The notes under the pieces were generated by a model, which saw only the letters and a list, made by a program, of their open reading frames with translations, made no database searches and was not told where the DNA came from. From a virus: DNA of 64,000 nucleotides. A program made the translations under genes and the position numbers. Each line of letters starts with the position of its first letter. The stretch's first letter is position 1. The DNA is taken from the IMG/VR virus record IMGVR_UViG_3300027749_000070, positions 1 through 64,000 of that record; one strand, written 5' to 3'. Shown one piece after another: positions 16,645 through 37,582 of the stretch.

Positions 16645-17433
16645 ATGAGTAAAAAATTATCTATCAACTTAAATAAGCGTTTCTTTCCAGATTTTATCGC
16701 TAAAATACAAGACTTATCCAGTATCAATGACGTTGTAAAACTGAAAATAGAAACTGATAAAGTTTTAATGTATGCCATGAAGGCAAATGATAATGCTGTT
16801 TTAGCATTAAAGAGTTATATACTTCCTACTACAAATTATTTCGATAATTTTAACCAAGAAGATATGTTTGATTTCATTATTGTTAATGCACCAAAGTTTA
16901 TCAAGTCATTAAAATTTTTTGACATTGATACACAAATTAAAATGGATGTAATTTATAAACCACACCATGAAAATGAAGGTGTAATGCAGATACGTTCAGC
17001 ACAATTTACTAATGGTAAATTAAAAATATCTACAATTGGTGGTGAAGATGATAAAATTAGAGATTTGAACGCTGAACTTCTTGAAACTAGAACTGATATA
17101 GAAAATGCTAGTTTTGATTTTCAAATTACTAAACATGATTTTAACGATGTTAAAAAATTATGTGCTATTGATTCGGAAGAAAAAATCTTATCTATTGATA
17201 TAGAAGAAGGAAAAATTGTAGCAAGCGAAATATCTAAATGGGAACTTCAACTAGGAGAAATTGATTCTTCATTTAACCAAAAAATTATTTTCAATAAAAA
17301 GTATTTATCAAATATAAATGGCGACATGGATATGATTAACTTTTATATGTTTGATACATTTATCTTAGTAAAGGATAATATATCTTCACTGATGCTTTCG
17401 TTTGAACAAACTTTTGATGAAGATGATGAATAA
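16645..17433 (+). CDS. Sliding clamp (gp45/PCNA-like)
   Basis: 262 aa, two-domain alpha/beta clamp pattern (FQITKHDFNDVKKL, IIFNKKYL), adjacent to UvsY. Confidence 0.6.
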   Translation: MSKKLSINLNKRFFPDFIAKIQDLSSINDVVKLKIETDKVLMYAMKANDNAVLALKSYILPTTNYFDNFNQEDMFDFIIVNAPKFIKSLKFFDIDTQIKMDVIYKPHHENEGVMQIRSAQFTNGKLKISTIGGEDDKIRDLNAELLETRTDIENASFDFQITKHDFNDVKKLCAIDSEEKILSIDIEEGKIVASEISKWELQLGEIDSSFNQKIIFNKKYLSNINGDMDMINFYMFDTFILVKDNISSLMLSFEQTFDEDDE

Positions 17434-17713
17434 GAACATTGATACCGAAGAAGAGTTGATGAAAATTTTGGTAGAAGAATTATCAAAAGAAGTTGATAAA
17501 CAGGTCATTAATGATGTAATGGCTTCTATGAAAATTATTGATGAATTTAATTTAAAACTTAAAGAAATTAAAGCTTTTAATAGAGAAATACAAATTGATA
17601 ATATATTATACGGTACTAATAATGCACTTCTAGAAATAGAAAAGACAGAAGAATATAATAAATTATCAGATGAACTTAAACAAGAATATATTAAAAATGG
17701 TAGATTATTATGA
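17423..17713 (+). CDS. Major-capsid (gp23) central-helix fragment plus NRExQID module
   Basis: IDTEEELMKILVEELSKEVDKQVI ~ T4 gp23 MDADAELSGILATEIMLEINREVV. Confidence 0.55.
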   Translation: MMNKNIDTEEELMKILVEELSKEVDKQVINDVMASMKIIDEFNLKLKEIKAFNREIQIDNILYGTNNALLEIEKTEEYNKLSDELKQEYIKNGRLL

Positions 17714-18021
17714 CACAAAGCTTAATAGGACATAAAAGTCCAGATATTCAAACAGGTATTGTATTTGCGCCATATATTCATATGGAATCAACCGCAATAA
17801 TAGAATCATCCTTGCTTAAAAAAGCTGAAATAAAGGTTAAAGCAATTAACCGTGAAAGACAAATAGACTCGATTTTAGAAGATAAAGATTTTATACCAAT
17901 GGATATAAAAGAAACTGCCGAATATAAAGAGTTTGAAAATACATATATGAAACCTTTAACAGGTATAAAAAGTAGATATGCAATAGCATCAATTGGAAAT
18001 GAGTATAAAAAAACAAACTAA
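17710..18021 (+). CDS. Major-capsid (gp23) C-terminal fragment with inserted NRExQID module
   Basis: GHKSPDIQTGIVFAPY...KPLTGIKSRYAI ~ gp23 GYKGPNEMDAGIYYAPY...QPVMGFKTRYGI. Confidence 0.7.
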   Translation: MTQSLIGHKSPDIQTGIVFAPYIHMESTAIIESSLLKKAEIKVKAINRERQIDSILEDKDFIPMDIKETAEYKEFENTYMKPLTGIKSRYAIASIGNEYKKTN

Positions 18022-18475
18022 AGAAGAACTAATAGATAAATGGGAACCAGTTTTAGATAAAATGGGATTATCTGGTGATAAAAAAGATTGGATGGCTCAA
18101 TATGCAGAGGCGCAATCAACAGCAGACGCTAATAATAGCAGCTCGTTATGGAACCAACAAATTGCACAATTAGGTGGAACCGCAAGTGATCCTTTTTCAG
18201 CAGCAATTTTTCCAGTAGTTAGAAGAGTTGCAGCAACAACCATATCAAATGGTGATGTTGAACTTTTGAAAAAGGCTGAAAATATGGTGATAGCTGTCAA
18301 TCGTGAAAAACAAATTGATTCTATATTAGAAGATAAAGATCCTACACTTATATCAATAGAAGATACCGAAGAATATAAAGAATATCTAAATAGCGGTTTA
18401 GTTTCAGTCAAACCTATGTCTGCTCCATCTGGATTGTTATATTTTCTGGACTATAAATATGATGATAAAAAATAA
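17999..18475 (+). CDS. Major-capsid (gp23) N-terminal fragment with inserted NRExQID module
   Basis: TKEELIDKWEPVL ~ gp23 TKAELLNKWKPLL; VVRRVAATTI...VSVKPMSAPSG ~ MVRRAIPNLI...GVQPMNSPTG. Confidence 0.75.
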   Translation: MSIKKQTKEELIDKWEPVLDKMGLSGDKKDWMAQYAEAQSTADANNSSSLWNQQIAQLGGTASDPFSAAIFPVVRRVAATTISNGDVELLKKAENMVIAVNREKQIDSILEDKDPTLISIEDTEEYKEYLNSGLVSVKPMSAPSGLLYFLDYKYDDKK

Positions 18476-18572: not shown

Positions 18573-19081
18573 TTAGATAACTTTTTTAAATACTAACTTA
18601 CAAGTTAGTTGATGAGACAGAGCCCTAATGAATTCATTAGAGGCTTTTGTTTTATGTATAACTGGAGCTTTTTTAATTATATTATAATCTTGCGTTTCAG
18701 TCACATAAATTAAACCAGCATAAGAAGGCACTTCATCTATACTAATAAGATTTTCAGGAACTACAAAGTAAAAATAATTTGGAACTAAATAAAAAGTTTT
18801 TTTTTAGTTTCTTTAATAAATTTACCTTCTGTTATTAAGTTATGTTTTGGTTTTTTAAAATCAGCCTTAAAATCACTTCTACTTATTTTAACCTCATATT
18901 CATATATGAAATCCGATTTACTTATAGATATAACATCGCATTCTTGTAATCCATATATAGAAGCGTGTGTTGATATAGGAGAGTGTCCTTTTTGATATAA
19001 ATTCATTACTAAACCAGCTTCTATATCTTTGGAAGCTGAATTGGATCTTTTAATTTTATTGATTGAGGATTTTCTTGACAT
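18573..19081 (-). CDS. MmcB-like PD-(D/E)XK nuclease, split by a -1 frameshift at an A9 run
   Basis: ECDVISI...EYEVKISRSDFKAD in frame 0; PNYFYFVVPENLISIDEVPSYAGLIYV continues in the -1 frame after the run at 18797-18805. Confidence 0.7.
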
Positions 19082-22800: not shown

Positions 22801-23988
22801 TCGCTTTTTGTATCATTTAAACCAGCTATGGATCATTGTGATTGGAGAAATTTATTTTTTGATAATTTAGATAAACTAACAAAAAAGTTTTTCATAATAA
22901 CAGGTAATTCACAAGTTAATACAGACAATCCTAATTATCATGGCTCTTGGAGTTTTGATCCAAATGATGACCCTGAAACAATTGGTCATATTAAAGACAT
23001 AATCGAAACTGATTGCGATTATATAATTGTTGATGGTTTTTGGATTAAAAATCGTGATTTCGAAAAATTCATATCCGAAAATAATTATCAATCAAAACTT
23101 AAATGGAATTGGTCAAATGAACTTGACTTCATACAAGGTTTAGATTATTACCGATATGCTGGTTATTTCAAGAAATGTCTTGAAGAATATGCAGATAGCT
23201 ATGGTGTGACTAATAAGGAAGATTTTGAATTAGAAAGAATTAGTGAATCAGTTATTTATTTAGCTAAGAAAAAGTATATTCAACACATCGTACATGAAGA
23301 TGGTATTGATTATGATAGATTAACTTATTTATATCCAAAAGGAGTTGAACTTGTTAGATCTTCTACGCCATTATTTGCGAGAGATAAAATTGTGGATATT
23401 ATTAAATACTTATTTACTAATCCAGATACATTTACTATTAGAGAATTACTTAAATTGGTTAAGAACCTTAGAAAAGAATTTGACTTATGTGTCCCAGATA
23501 AGATAGATGATATCTGTATGCAATCGTCATGTTCAAACTATGAGGAAAAAGTTCTTAATGATAAAGAAAAATTAGAGTTTATTAATGGTGCACACTTTGC
23601 GGTTAAAGCATCAGCTTATTATAACCACTTATTACACAAGCATAAAGATATACAAGCTAAATATGACTTCATCAAATCAGGAACTAAAATTAAGTATTAC
23701 TATTGTAAAGACACTACTATTGGTAAAGTATTTGCTTATATGCGTGGTTCTTATCCAATTGAAATAGCACCCGAAATAGATCTAAATGAACAATTTGCAA
23801 AATGTATCTTATCACCGATTAACTCGATTATTGAGCCATTGGGTCTTCCAGAAATTACAAAAAGACTTTCGGTCGTGTTAGATATATTTGGTGGATCTTT
23901 ACAAAAGAAGAAAAAAGAAGAACAAGAAGAGGATGATTATAGTGATGAAGAATACAACAATAGAAAATGGGATAATTGGGATTATTAA
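22645..23988 (+). CDS. Intein C-half fused to family B polymerase palm/thumb
   Basis: SLFV after HN; FELE, AKKKY, KGVELVRSSTP, KSGTKIKY. Confidence 0.9.
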   Translation: MINKVEHEKIEYFFDEIESCEVIGNFEDEYVYDVEVDDETHTFIGNDILVHNSLFVSFKPAMDHCDWRNLFFDNLDKLTKKFFIITGNSQVNTDNPNYHGSWSFDPNDDPETIGHIKDIIETDCDYIIVDGFWIKNRDFEKFISENNYQSKLKWNWSNELDFIQGLDYYRYAGYFKKCLEEYADSYGVTNKEDFELERISESVIYLAKKKYIQHIVHEDGIDYDRLTYLYPKGVELVRSSTPLFARDKIVDIIKYLFTNPDTFTIRELLKLVKNLRKEFDLCVPDKIDDICMQSSCSNYEEKVLNDKEKLEFINGAHFAVKASAYYNHLLHKHKDIQAKYDFIKSGTKIKYYYCKDTTIGKVFAYMRGSYPIEIAPEIDLNEQFAKCILSPINSIIEPLGLPEITKRLSVVLDIFGGSLQKKKKEEQEEDDYSDEEYNNRKWDNWDY

Positions 23989-23999
23989 AAATAAATAAA

Positions 24000-24395
24000 A
24001 TGAATATGAAAATAATTAATAAAATTAAATCTTTATTTAAGAAAGAAAACTCCGAATTAAATGTTTCGGCACCTGTGTATGTAATACCAGAACCAATCGG
24101 TGAAATACACTATTTTGATTTCAAATATGAAGAACCAACAATGGAAACTAAAATTATGGCACAAAAAATAGGTTTAGATTTAGTAAACGTAAAACGTGAT
24201 CCAAATATGGTTATTACATCAGGATATATGGATTTTAAAGAAAATGTAGAATTAAGTCCAGAAGAGATCTTATTTCAAATGAAAAAGGTAAAAAGAGCTT
24301 CAGAAAAAGTTTTGGAAAAAATGACTGAAACTGAGGCTAAACATCATAAAAGTTTAGAGTATTTTAAACATAAAGCAGAGCAACATGATAAGTAA
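24000..24395 (+). CDS. Protein with permuted gp23-like 'QxIGLDLVxV / G.xxYxDFKY' segment
   Basis: PIGEIHYFDFKY, KIMAQKIGLDLVNVK, GYMDFK; parallels 17999..18475. Confidence 0.5.
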   Translation: MNMKIINKIKSLFKKENSELNVSAPVYVIPEPIGEIHYFDFKYEEPTMETKIMAQKIGLDLVNVKRDPNMVITSGYMDFKENVELSPEEILFQMKKVKRASEKVLEKMTETEAKHHKSLEYFKHKAEQHDK

Positions 24396-24879
24396 AAATA
24401 TAGCTTATTACATAGACGCATATAAAGGTATTTTTACATTTGCAACAACTGCAATTGGTGAGAAGTATTATACTTATCTAATAGATGAAGTAGTTAAAAA
24501 TTTAACTTGTAAAAGTGTTAAATTAGATTTTGATTCAGATAATGATGACGCAGCTAATTATAAAGATACTTTATTAATCTTAGATTTAACTACAGCAAAA
24601 CCTGATAAATTTTATGTAGATCGCATCGCTAGAATTTGTGATGAAAATAATAATGTTCTTCTTATAAAGAAACTTACTTATAAAGGAATAAGTAGTTTAG
24701 GAACAGATACTGTAATAACACCAAGTTTTCTTTTGTATTCAGCAACAGTTGCTTTTACGATTGATGATAATAGTGTAATAAAAGTAATTAAAAATAGGTA
24801 TGACTCGATTGATATAATCAATCATAATATAATAGCTTATATGAGGGAAGAAAGAATAAACCAGATACTTGAAGATTAG
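24385..24879 (+). CDS. Hypothetical protein, possibly a degenerate RecA/DnaB-fold fragment, with REERINQILED tail
   Basis: LLILD strand and KVIKNRY; no Walker A; C-terminal motif resembles the NRExQIDxILED module. Confidence 0.4.
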   Translation: MISKNIAYYIDAYKGIFTFATTAIGEKYYTYLIDEVVKNLTCKSVKLDFDSDNDDAANYKDTLLILDLTTAKPDKFYVDRIARICDENNNVLLIKKLTYKGISSLGTDTVITPSFLLYSATVAFTIDDNSVIKVIKNRYDSIDIINHNIIAYMREERINQILED

Positions 24880-27362: not shown

Positions 27363-28931
27363 TTAGACATTCTTAGGACGCATTTGAGGAAATAATAAAA
27401 CATCTTGTATAGACGCTTGTCCTGTCATCAACATAGCCAATCTATCTATACCTATGCCTATACCAGCAGTTGGTGGCATACCATATTCTAATGCTTGTAT
27501 ATAATCATTATCAATATACATAGCTTCGTCATCACCTCTATCCATTAGTTCCATCTGTTCTTCAAAACGGTGTCTTTGATCAATAGGATCATTTAACTCA
27601 CTATATGCATTAGCTATTTCTTTACCATTGACTATTAACTCAAATCTTTCAACTAAACCTTCTTTTGAACGATGTTTTTTAGTTAAAGGACTCATTTCAA
27701 TAGGATAATCTATGATAAATGTTGGTTGTATATAATGGTGTTCGCAGCAATTACCAAATATAGTGTCAATTAACTTACCTTTACCATCAGTTTGACTGAC
27801 TTTTATATTTAATTGACTACAAGTATCAAGTAATTGACGTTGTTGCATATTAGAAATATCTATACCAGTATGTTCTTTAATAGAATCATAGATACTAATT
27901 CTTTTATATGGACCCTTAAAATCTATTACATTATTACCTACCGTAAAACTATAAGAAGGATAAGAGCAATCTTCACAATTTACTTGATATGCTATATATT
28001 CTAACATTTTCTCAGTAGTATTCATCATCCACTCATAATCTTTATATGCAGCATAATATTCCATAACCGTGAACTCTGGGTTATGTGTTCTATCCATGCC
28101 TTCATTTCTAAAATTACGACTAAATTCATAAACAGAATCAAACCCACCTACAATCAATCTCTTTAAATATAGTTCATTTGCAATACGTAAATATAAAGGT
28201 ATATCTAATGCATTATGATGCGTCTTAAATGGGCGAGCGGCAGCTCCACCTGGTATACTTTGTAATACCGGTGTATCAACTTCTAATGCACCTAAACTAT
28301 TTAGGTGGGTCCGCATAGCGTTTTTTAATATGGTTATTTTTCTAAAAGTAGTTTTCACTTCTGGATTAATAATCAAATCAACATAACGATGCCTATATCT
28401 AAATTCAGGATCATTTACTTTATCAAATTCTTGTCCATCTTTCTCCTTTGTAATAGGAAGCGGATGTAAACTCTTCGATAATAATGTAAATTCTGTGACA
28501 TGAATAGTTGTTTCGCCGGTTTTTGTAGTAAAGACATAACCTTTTACGCCGATAAAATCTCCTATATCAAGTAGTTTTTTCCATACGGTATTATAAAGAG
28601 TTTTATCTTCATTAGGACAAATATCATCTCTTTTTATGTATAATTGTATTTTACTAGTTCCATCCTGGATATAAGCAAAATTAGCTTTACCCATATCTTG
28701 TATAGACATAAGCCTACCCGCAATAGAAACTTTATCGAACTCCATATAAATATCAAGTTCATCGCTATCAGCTAAAATCAATCTTTGGTTATCATAAGTT
28801 TCCTTTACATACATAGCATGTATGTAGTTTATATTATGTGTAGTTTCGTAAGTAGCTGCTGGATAGGGATTTATACCTAACGCTATAAGCTGTTCTAATT
28901 TTTGCCTTCTTATTATTTCTTGTTCTGTCAT
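27363..28931 (-). CDS. lysS: Lysyl-tRNA synthetase (class II), Bacteroidota-like
   Basis: [58 protein letters not shown]. Confidence 0.97.
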
Positions 28932-36075: not shown

Positions 36076-36735
36076 ATGAAAAAATTAGCATCGGATTACC
36101 GAAATTATCTCAATTCTAGAATACCCGAAAGTATTGTTAAGAAAACAATTCAAAATAATTCTAACTTTATCATTGATAATGAAAAAGGATTTATGTTGGA
36201 TATTTATACAAAACTATTAAATGATAGAATCGTGTTCCTTAATGACGAAATTGATACATATACCTCTGAATTAGTTAAAAGTCAATTACTTTACTTAGAA
36301 CAATTAGACAATAAAAAAGATATTAAAATGTATATTAATTCACCAGGTGGCTCAGTATATGACGGCTTAGGTATACTAGATACAATGGACTATATTAGAC
36401 CAGATATTATTACCATAAATACTGGCTTAGCAGCTTCAATGGCAGCTGTTATACTTTGTTATGGTACAGAAGGCAAAAGAAAATCATTAAAGCGTTCTAG
36501 AACAATGATACATCAACCAATTGGTTATACTGGTTATGCACAAGCTTCGGATATAGAAATTGATGCAAAAGAAATTAATTCTCTTAAAAAAGAATTATAT
36601 GAAATTATATCAGAAAGAACTGGACAGCAGTATGATAAAGTAGAAAGAGATTCTGATAGAGATTATTGGATGACATCCACTGAGGCAAAAAAATATGGTA
36701 TAATTGACGAAGTGATAAAAACAAGAAAAAAGTAA
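36076..36735 (+). CDS. clpP: ATP-dependent Clp protease proteolytic subunit
   Basis: YINSPGGSV, GLAASMAA, MIHQP, RDYWM...EAKKYGIID. Confidence 0.95.
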   Translation: MKKLASDYRNYLNSRIPESIVKKTIQNNSNFIIDNEKGFMLDIYTKLLNDRIVFLNDEIDTYTSELVKSQLLYLEQLDNKKDIKMYINSPGGSVYDGLGILDTMDYIRPDIITINTGLAASMAAVILCYGTEGKRKSLKRSRTMIHQPIGYTGYAQASDIEIDAKEINSLKKELYEIISERTGQQYDKVERDSDRDYWMTSTEAKKYGIIDEVIKTRKK

Positions 36736-36757: not shown

Positions 36758-37582
36758 ATGAAAGAAACTAAAAAGAAATATTTAAACTCTGAGTTTTTAA
36801 GCACTGCTGTTTGTTATTGTATACCTGAAACAAAAGCTACTATTAATTATTTAGAGCAAATTGAAACTGGAGAAAATGATGGTTATAAAGAATTTTCAAT
36901 TCAAGTTAAACAAACAGATATTTATTGTGAAAAAATAACTGTACCAAAAACAATAAATAATATCCTTATTAATACTTTAATTAAAAAGTTATATAATAAA
37001 TATATGGATTTAGCGAGTAATAATGATAAAAGTATAAAGTCAAAGCTACCAAATCATAAAAATAATTTTCTAACTAATTGGATTAAAAAAGATTATAACT
37101 TCTTAATTGAAGATAATGATGAGGATTCAAGAAGATTAATTACTAGAATAATACATACTAGCAATAATATGGCGGTTAATAGTAGAATTGGTCCTTCTAA
37201 TTTTATTGTAATTAGTCCAAAATTAATACCTATTTTACAAAATTCAACTAGTTTTATTTATTCATTTAATAATATTAAAGAATATGAAAGTATAACAACA
37301 ATTGGAAACTTAATGGATTTATGTGTGTTTGTAAATTACGATTCTTGTTCCGATGAAATCTTAATAGGACGACATTCAAGTCAAAATAATTTTGGTGGGG
37401 TTGCTCTATTAGAAAATTCTATTAATATAGAAGATAAATTTATTACTTGGATTGGAGCTATTGATTTTATGTCACCTACATCAAAGTATATGTTTGACAC
37501 TATCAAAGTTAAAATTGTAGAAGAATTACCATGGTATAAACAATTTGTTTATAAAATTCTTAAAAAGAGAAAGTTAATTTAA
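36758..37582 (+). CDS. Degenerate gp23-like capsid paralog (C-terminal half)
   Basis: RLITRIIHTSNNMAVNSRIGPSNFIVISPKL ~ gp23 LLFQIDKEAVEIARQTGRGEGNFIIASRNV. Confidence 0.6.
   Translation: MKETKKKYLNSEFLSTAVCYCIPETKATINYLEQIETGENDGYKEFSIQVKQTDIYCEKITVPKTINNILINTLIKKLYNKYMDLASNNDKSIKSKLPNHKNNFLTNWIKKDYNFLIEDNDEDSRRLITRIIHTSNNMAVNSRIGPSNFIVISPKLIPILQNSTSFIYSFNNIKEYESITTIGNLMDLCVFVNYDSCSDEILIGRHSSQNNFGGVALLENSINIEDKFITWIGAIDFMSPTSKYMFDTIKVKIVEELPWYKQFVYKILKKRKLI

Follow-up and report, generated by a model that had tools for sequence, protein, structure and literature searches.

Capsid-protein fragments joined to a shared peptide module in three overlapping phage genes: a possible split mini-capsid protein

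Why would a phage carry several small genes outside its head operon, each encoding a different piece of the major capsid protein (MCP) joined to one and the same foreign module? The question is raised by three overlapping open reading frames (ORFs), here called mini-genes A, B and C, in a 64,000-nucleotide stretch of viral DNA (positions 1 to 64,000 of IMG/VR record IMGVR_UViG_3300027749_000070; hereafter the window), the source of which is a 91-kb IMG/VR contig with an estimated completeness of 36%. All three lie on the plus strand, A at 17423..17713 (96 aa), B at 17710..18021 (103 aa) and C at 17999..18475 (158 aa, with an alternative TTG start at 17993). Their frames are intact and run head to tail with mutual overlaps: the start of A overlaps the stop codon of an upstream gene for a 262-aa protein (16645..17433, plus strand), an ATGA overlap joins the start of B to the stop of A, and the start of C precedes the stop of B by 23 nt. 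The three genes sit in a replication/recombination block. An earlier reading of the locus, which we call the original prediction, had regarded them as possible capsid decoys, or as adaptors that share a common handle.

The shared module is about 45-50 residues long and occupies 17537..17686 in A (core NREIQIDNIL), 17806..17955 in B (core NRERQIDSIL) and 18257..18406 in C (core NREKQIDSIL), on the plus strand throughout. It consists of an amphipathic helix of ~25 residues with the motif R-[DE]-x-[KQ]-I-D-x-I-L and, after it, of an acidic stretch resembling IEDTEEYKEY. Among five copies taken from the window and the relative L004, 11 of 50 columns are invariant, and a hidden Markov model (HMM) of the module found full matches within the 91-kb contig only in the frames of A, B and C, with E-values from 1e-19 to 1e-27. 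The claim that these overlapping ORFs share a module was thereby borne out. At the DNA level, the copies in A, B and C are 51-64% identical, with identical residues encoded by varied codons. An intein was discarded as an explanation because the module contains no Cys/Ser…His-Asn junctions. A mobile in-frame DNA insertion, resembling the Rickettsia palindromic element (RPE), was likewise discarded because of the low DNA identity, the varied codons and the restriction of full copies in this genome to A, B and C. The module itself matched nothing in Pfam, PHROG, NCBIfam or the ESM Atlas, and its matches in the PDB were at chance level only.

The remaining parts of the three proteins derive from the capsid protein, for which we used the 590-aa true MCP of the close relative G002 as the reference. 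In C, residues 8-82 align with MCP 8-104, comprising the N-terminal propeptide and the N-arm helix, and residues 134-156, which follow the module, align with the first strands at MCP 108-130. Residues 3-32 of A align with MCP 363-392, a segment of the capsid spine helix, and are followed by the module and a conserved tail, LSDExKxxYxKxG. In B, residues 5-31 and 86-96 align with the C-terminal P-domain strands at MCP 523-549 and 560-570, and the module lies in the intervening loop. The pieces are colinear with the G002 MCP, and the observed scores were reached by only 0-4 of 1000 shuffles. On T4 gp23, the same pieces cover residues 1-61, 111-131, 284-316, 436-454 and 468-479. Both sets of alignments agree with the original prediction that the ORFs represent different, out-of-order regions of gp23, and the MCP alignments flank the module in B and C, which bears out its insertion inside the capsid motif there. 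The alignment to T4 gp23 also places the Gol-equivalent region of the capsid protein in C, where it had been anticipated, albeit with the module splitting that segment. The N-terminus of C aligns full-length with the capsid proteins of the huge phages LR745206 (635 kb) and LR756502 (642 kb), members of the Mahaphage clade with predicted Bacteroidetes hosts (PMC7162821). For the phage of the window, a freshwater member of the Bacteroidota is the probable host.

Profile searches gave weaker signals. Gp23 (PF07068) is the best Pfam match for each of the three proteins, at a different part of the profile in each case (positions 163-202 for A, 306-334 for B and 22-47 for C), but the individual matches have E-values of 1e-3 to 2e-2, and their scores of 18.9, 15.5 and 14.5 bits for A, B and C stay under the gathering cut-off of 24.4 bits. 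When searched against the PDB, the A-type profile matched gp23 chains at residues 274-315 with an E-value of about 0.2, and the C-type and B-type profiles gave no gp23 match at E-values up to 1. The proposed similarity to gp23 and to the true MCP thus holds as significant local alignments to the MCP, whereas the Pfam scores do not reach family level.

A complete HK97 fold contains the N-arm, E-loop, P-domain and A-domain and is about 450-600 aa long. With 96-158 aa each, A, B and C cover only MCP 8-130, 363-392 and 523-570 and do not make up a complete single-chain HK97 fold. The segments seen in C, A and B are those that build the P-domain/N-arm face, and the E-loop insertion and the A-domain are absent from the set. 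The non-module parts of A, B and C, corresponding to the N-terminus with the Gol region, the spine helix and the C-terminal strands, are homologous to T4 gp23 and the vertex protein gp24 (PF07068, HK97 fold; PDB 5vf3, 7vs5). Unlike these proteins, the mini-gene products are fragments of 30-100 residues with a foreign module attached and with neither the E-loop insertion nor the A-domain; moreover, they score under the Pfam cut-off, and their genes lie away from the head operon. Judging from the sub-cut-off scores and the incomplete fold, we consider A, B and C to be homologous to gp23 yet not functional members of the capsid family.

The true capsid protein was not found on the 91-kb contig. 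In G002, its gene lies about 72 kb from the mini-genes, behind the gene of a gp21-like protease-scaffold protein with ISYSEYIAE repeats, which confirms that the mini-genes are located outside a head operon. The MCP is itself highly conserved, and the fragments share only about 35-55% identity with it; this divergence rules out gene conversion that would keep the two identical.

Are the mini-genes then simply remnants? The gene order of phosphoesterase, UvsY-like gene, 262-aa gene, A, (B), C and polB recurs in four further contigs (L004, L009, L023 and L025/L027, the last two counted as one). Intact syntenic frames of A and C are present in all four and of B in three, B being absent from L004. 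In L009, B and C are fused into a single 250-aa ORF, and a decayed extra copy, of A-type or module only, lies between the 262-aa gene and A (L009:3950-4150) and contains an in-frame TAA. The ratio of nonsynonymous to synonymous substitution rates (dN/dS), calculated against four relatives, was 0.24-0.85 for A, 0.29-0.48 for B and 0.24-0.65 for C, as compared with 0.07-0.13 for the neighbouring 262-aa gene; these values are rough because dS is near saturation. Amino-acid identities among the relatives are 31-67% for the mini-genes versus 80-85% for the 262-aa gene and 85-93% for the phosphoesterase. Non-functional debris of recombination or homing-endonuclease traffic, left open by chance, is the explanation to which we give hardly any credence. 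It could draw on the many homing endonucleases and the split polymerase in the window as well as on the TAA-broken family copy in L009, but frames that stay intact in four further contigs at a dS of about 1, protein-level conservation with varied codons, the recurrence of the same architectures in 104 clusters and the recurrence of the design with a non-homologous tag (both described below) all speak against it. The expectation that the ORFs do not reflect simple decay was thus upheld by the intact syntenic frames, the 104 clusters and a dN/dS below 1. Comparative evidence of this kind points to old, constrained and fast-evolving genes rather than to recent debris or a mobile DNA insert.

The module is by no means confined to this locus. 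A search of its profile against 1.84 billion representative proteins returned 104 clusters at the 50% identity level, 26 of them at an E-value of 1e-10 or better, and nearly all of the proteins are 38-178 aa long. The member P0001, which is the same protein as C, was found with an E-value of 8.7e-22, and homologs of A (P0011-P0015) share 67-82% identity with it; ORF A used as a query against IMG/VR gave no match. Pfam Gp23 is matched by 25 of 105 module-family members. C-type members combine the capsid N-arm helix and the first strands with the module, which is found at three or more points relative to the strand LVSVxPM; even orthologs in the same genomic slot show either the module-then-strand or the strand-then-module order. 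B-type members consist of the capsid C-terminal strands and the module, and A-type members of the spine helix, the module and the conserved tail. P0051 is a chimera of the N-terminal part of B and the C-terminal part of C. Other members carry the module on scaffold repeats (S-type; ISYSEYIAE, resembling the T4 capsid targeting sequence, CTS), on pieces of a gp21-like protease (annotated in PHROG as 'head maturation protease') or on pieces of the Pfam UVR motif matching the M-domain motif in the ClpC-like ATPase that the phage itself encodes, and collagen-like tails are further partners. Among deposited phage genomes, the only module carriers are metagenomic huge phages.

Partial module matches at the ends of two ORFs unrelated to the mini-genes suggested that a part of the module might be more widespread. 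One is a 164-aa ORF in the window (24385..24879, plus strand; ending in …REERINQILED, stop) and the other a 103-aa ORF beyond the window (contig G000:65740-66051; ending in …REIAIDSILE, stop). We thus counted the core motif R-[DE]-x-K-[IL]-[DN]-x-[IV]-[LF], hereafter the tag, in the complete 635-kb genome of LR745206 and found it in 63 ORFs, as opposed to 2.1 ± 1.5 in shuffled proteins (about 30-fold). As many as 49 of the 63 copies lie within 12 residues of the C-terminus, where 0.14 would be expected. The codons for Arg, Leu, Ile and Lys vary freely between the copies, indicating conservation at the protein level and ruling out a DNA-level element at gene ends. Because the 63 carriers have no mutual similarity outside the motif, one expanded paralog family can also be dismissed as the source of the tag. 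Most carriers are small proteins of unknown function, and the tag also occurs, internally or near the end, on an RNA ligase, a UvsW-like helicase and a nucleotidyltransferase-like protein. The carriers in LR745206 are grouped in small-gene arrays near the record ends (loci L041-L072). With a strict DNA pattern of the tag, we counted 33 copies each in LR745206 and LR756502, four in G001 and five in G002, and none in four other huge phages, T4, one Flavobacterium phage or the reversed-pattern controls.

A, B and C themselves contain the tag core in the form R-[DE]-x-[KQR]-[IL]-[DN]-x-[IV]-[LF]. Their copies are internal, 34-48 residues from the end, and not at the extreme C-terminus. LR745206 has all three types of capsid pieces, dispersed in the genome and each of them tagged: the C-type piece carries an internal module, and those resembling A and B have a short tag at the C-terminus. 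A role of the module as a common handle, as in the original prediction, fits these observations, as its core turned out to be a tag on dozens of unrelated proteins of the clade.

A second lineage makes use of the same design with another tag. The 735-kb phage LR756501 is without the R-D-x-K-I-D tag and has a tag of its own, DPYGEExW, in 106 copies. This motif has zero copies in five other huge phages and in reversed-pattern controls, and 17 of 24 sampled copies (loci L097, L101, L102 and L103) lie within six residues of the C-terminus. The B-type capsid fragment of LR756501 ends in DPYGEExW. The same phage encodes, on the minus strand, a single-chain 'mini-capsid protein' of 196 aa (L098:643-1233) that corresponds to MCP 5-102, 331-391 and 541-566 in their natural order; module, E-loop insertion and A-domain are all absent from it. 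Small Gp23-like fragment ORFs were found in two huge phages without the R-D-x-K-I-D tag, LR756501 and LR756511, and capsid-fragment mini-genes seem, from these matches, to be more widely spread than any single tag. Fragments, module and tag all proved real and are conserved at the protein level, and the design recurs with a non-homologous tag.

What could such proteins do? The interpretation we favour, albeit tentatively and with slightly less than even confidence, is that the three mini-genes jointly specify one 'mini-capsid protein', split and tagged, that would mimic the P-domain/N-arm of the capsid, with the module as its handle. Five observations suggest that the three genes constitute one functional unit, namely the single chain in LR756501, the B-C fusion in L009, the P0051 chimera, the coupled frames and the swapped order of module and strand. 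When the aligned segments are placed on the HK97 fold, they indicate a unit made of the propeptide, the N-arm and the P-domain (spine helix and flanking strands), minus the E-loop insertion and the A-domain. We take the module to be a handle because it occurs in 104 clusters with different head-protein fragments and at shifting positions, because its core is enriched as a tag and because a second tag is found on a capsid fragment. Mechanistically, the products would be made from the replication/recombination block ahead of or alongside head assembly. The fragments might then mimic the P-domain/N-arm face and occupy whatever binds it, be it a capsid or scaffold neighbour or a capsid sensor of the host, and the module could dock them on a hub that reads the tag, perhaps joining the three pieces.

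Several observations weigh against the split mini-capsid protein. The tag is a general label, not specific to capsid mimicry, as enzymes carry it too. B is absent in the relative G001, so a strict three-part unit is not universal, and the fast evolution together with the TAA-broken copy in L009 may mean that some copies are dispensable. Furthermore, structure prediction of C with AlphaFold2 (AF2) from a 41-sequence alignment yielded no compact fold, the mean predicted local distance difference test score (pLDDT) being 66 and the predicted template modelling score (pTM) 0.33. Only the module helix at residues 87-111 (pLDDT about 90) and a short helix at residues 124-131 were predicted confidently, and the capsid-derived strands were not folded alone, which would fit segments that fold on a partner.

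Capsid-derived peptides are known as immune triggers from the T4 Gol peptide, which acts with the Lit protease, and from capsid sensing by CapRel. On this basis, the fragments could be immune decoys or adaptors: made before the late proteins, they would bind host sensors of capsid, scaffold or protease surfaces (of the Lit/Gol or CapRel type), and the split epitope or the module would keep the sensor inactive or pass it on to a phage factor. C does hold the segment corresponding to Gol, although the module interrupts it. The fragments are drawn from the most conserved motifs of hallmark proteins, their genes lie in the replication/recombination block, far from the head operon (by about 72 kb in G002), and they evolve fast with copy gain, loss, fusion and pseudogene formation, as is usual for genes in conflict. 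However, the family departs from the Gol/Lit and CapRel systems in that it also includes scaffold, protease and ClpC fragments, and no sensor is known for this clade of Bacteroidota-type phages. The design is old and widespread, with 104 clusters and lineages that use different tags; the capsid propeptide and the scaffold repeats, which act inside the prohead, are included; and a ClpC UVR fragment is hard to read as an immune epitope. We consider decoys or adaptors unlikely on balance, though worth keeping in view. Of the original prediction, the capsid pieces with a shared handle were borne out; the single chain in LR756501 points more to one P-domain mimic than to a set of independent epitopes.

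Another possibility is a role in head assembly, in which the fragments would cap, or assemble jointly with, the capsid, scaffold and protease proteins inside the prohead, acting as chaperone-like guards, as regulators of size or shape, or as packaging adaptors for tagged proteins. Nearly all recognised partners of the module are components of the prohead interior (the MCP propeptide, N-arm and P-domain, the ISYSEYIAE scaffold repeats and the gp21-like protease), and the deep relative LR756501 retains the propeptide in its single-chain mini-capsid protein. In addition, a 274-aa capsid half-paralog in the window (36758..37582, plus strand), equivalent to the last 40% of the capsid protein (MCP 344-578), adjoins ClpP in three relatives. 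It starts 23 nt after the gene of a cellular-type ClpP (36076-36735; Pfam E-value 2e-72), and the pair is kept in G001 and G002; its homologs P0041 and P0044 (323-325 aa) have a full module near the N-terminus. Against a role in head assembly stand the position of the mini-genes outside the head cluster, their evolution at a rate 3-5 times faster than that of their neighbours, the dispensability of B in G001 and the presence of the tag on nucleic-acid enzymes. This alternative, too, strikes us as unlikely on balance, though not negligible. The split mini-capsid protein is formulated so that its target may be a capsid or scaffold neighbour as well as a host sensor.

The proximity of Clp genes brings up a different role for the tag, namely a degradation or adaptor signal for a phage Clp machine composed of a ClpC-like ATPase and ClpP, by which the mini-proteins would either turn over quickly or bring bound proteins to the protease. 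Genes for a cellular-type ClpP were found in all five related genomes, and those of them that are complete have, in addition, a ClpC-like ATPase containing a UVR motif. In LR745206, tagged genes are located directly beside ClpP and ClpC. The ClpC-like ATPase of LR745206 (L089:256-2361, 701 aa) has no Clp_N domain and contains the UVR motif QKYEEAARLRDVERQ, which the UVR-type module proteins P0032, P0038, P0093 and P0099 copy. Nevertheless, there is no phyletic link, as huge phages without the tag also encode ClpP and Clp ATPases; the tag is internal in A, B and C instead of C-terminal, and the adjacency argument is post hoc. A Clp signal appears quite improbable to us.

The upstream gene invites yet another role. 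It had been taken for a sliding clamp, and the tag could accordingly be imagined as a clamp-binding peptide that tethers the mini-proteins to the clamp encoded upstream. The C-terminal SLDFLF-type tails of T4 gp43, gp33 and gp55 bind the clamp (Geiduschek and Kassavetis 2010, PMC2988020). They are short hydrophobic and acidic motifs by which several proteins dock on one hub, as the tag carriers might; the tag follows the pattern phi-D-x-phi-phi of tails such as SLDFLFG and SLDFLYEAND (a resemblance of pattern only), it is often found at the extreme C-terminus, and A is translationally coupled to the possible clamp gene. The identity of that gene was not confirmed: the 262-aa protein had no match in Pfam, PHROG or NCBIfam, its profile found nothing in the PDB, and an AF2 model from five sequences was unusable (pLDDT 36), leaving a language-model lead as the sole link to gp45/PCNA. 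Moreover, nothing in T4 corresponds to the tag's invariant Arg and helical spacing, the tag has far more carriers, and about 50 small unrelated clamp clients are implausible. A tail closer to the T4 type is present on the clade's own polymerase (…VMDIFGGFK in LR745206, VVLDIFGG in the window), and the mini-genes of LR745206 are not beside the 262-aa gene. A query with T4 gp55 gave no match in the five related genomes. We see only a very slim chance for clamp tethering. The middle-type promoter that had been proposed ahead of the mini-genes was not supported either, since sigma-70-like sites occur at chance level (37 found versus 35.9 expected), and a terminator scan called none after C.

Two further systems resemble the tag. 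The CTS of the T4 internal proteins IPI-III and Alt is likewise a short address-label peptide on otherwise unrelated phage proteins, and the S-type scaffold repeats fused to the module look CTS-like. However, the T4 CTS is N-terminal (about 10 aa) and is removed by gp21, whereas the clade tag is a C-terminal or internal helix without a conserved cleavage site; the module is internal, and the Glu after I-L is not conserved (ILED, ILFD, ILYG and ILND). The cargo-loading peptides of encapsulins are short, C-terminal, present on unrelated cargo and read by the N-arm/P-domain face of the HK97-fold shell. That face is the one that supplies the fragments in A, B and C, but these peptides have no sequence similarity to the tag. 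By analogy, the tag appears to work like an address label, yet it fails the defining features of the CTS and of encapsulin peptides, and from the clamp tails it differs in sequence pattern.

A broader idea, which we put forward as doubtful, is that each Mahaphage-type lineage runs its own proteome-wide address system, with a tag on at least 5% of its proteins (R-D-x-K-I-D-x-I-L here and DPYGEExW in LR756501). Tagged fragments of the capsid protein, scaffold and protease would link this system to the capsid protein, either for loading the giant head or for neutralising host sensors, and at the present locus the link would be split into three coupled genes held together by the module. Neither the module nor the tags have a counterpart in Pfam, PHROG, NCBIfam or the PDB, and our literature search turned up no account of them or of mini-genes for capsid fragments. 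If the idea is correct, huge phages would possess an unrecognised organisational layer, in which lineage-specific peptide tags label dozens to a hundred unrelated proteins and mini-proteins are purpose-built copies of the surface through which the phage's capsid, scaffold and protease interact. The tag would then allow a functional class of the many uncharacterised giant-phage proteins to be predicted from sequence alone, and the mini-proteins would represent natural fragment-based mimicry, be it in capsid assembly or in the evasion of capsid-sensing immunity.

The window holds one more capsid-derived mini-gene, D (23976..24395, plus strand), located just 3' of polB. Its product corresponds to an N-arm/strand part of the capsid protein (MCP 98-127), with the order permuted, and in this genome it lacks the module; counterparts of D are found in L009 (8896-9345) and L024 (1093-1536). 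The end of polB itself (23880-23988) contains the T4-like clamp-tail motif, after which the protein continues for about 35 aa with an acidic, Trp-rich extension, and the polymerase of LR745206 terminates right after its corresponding motif. Downstream of C, on the minus strand, an MmcB-like PD-(D/E)XK gene is present in two frames (18573-18731 and 18785-19081), while L025 has a single intact ORF of 169 aa (1976-2485); the split gene is probably a frameshifted pseudogene. Finally, a 522-aa ORF on the minus strand (27363-28931) may encode a lysyl-tRNA synthetase-like protein, as judged by eye.

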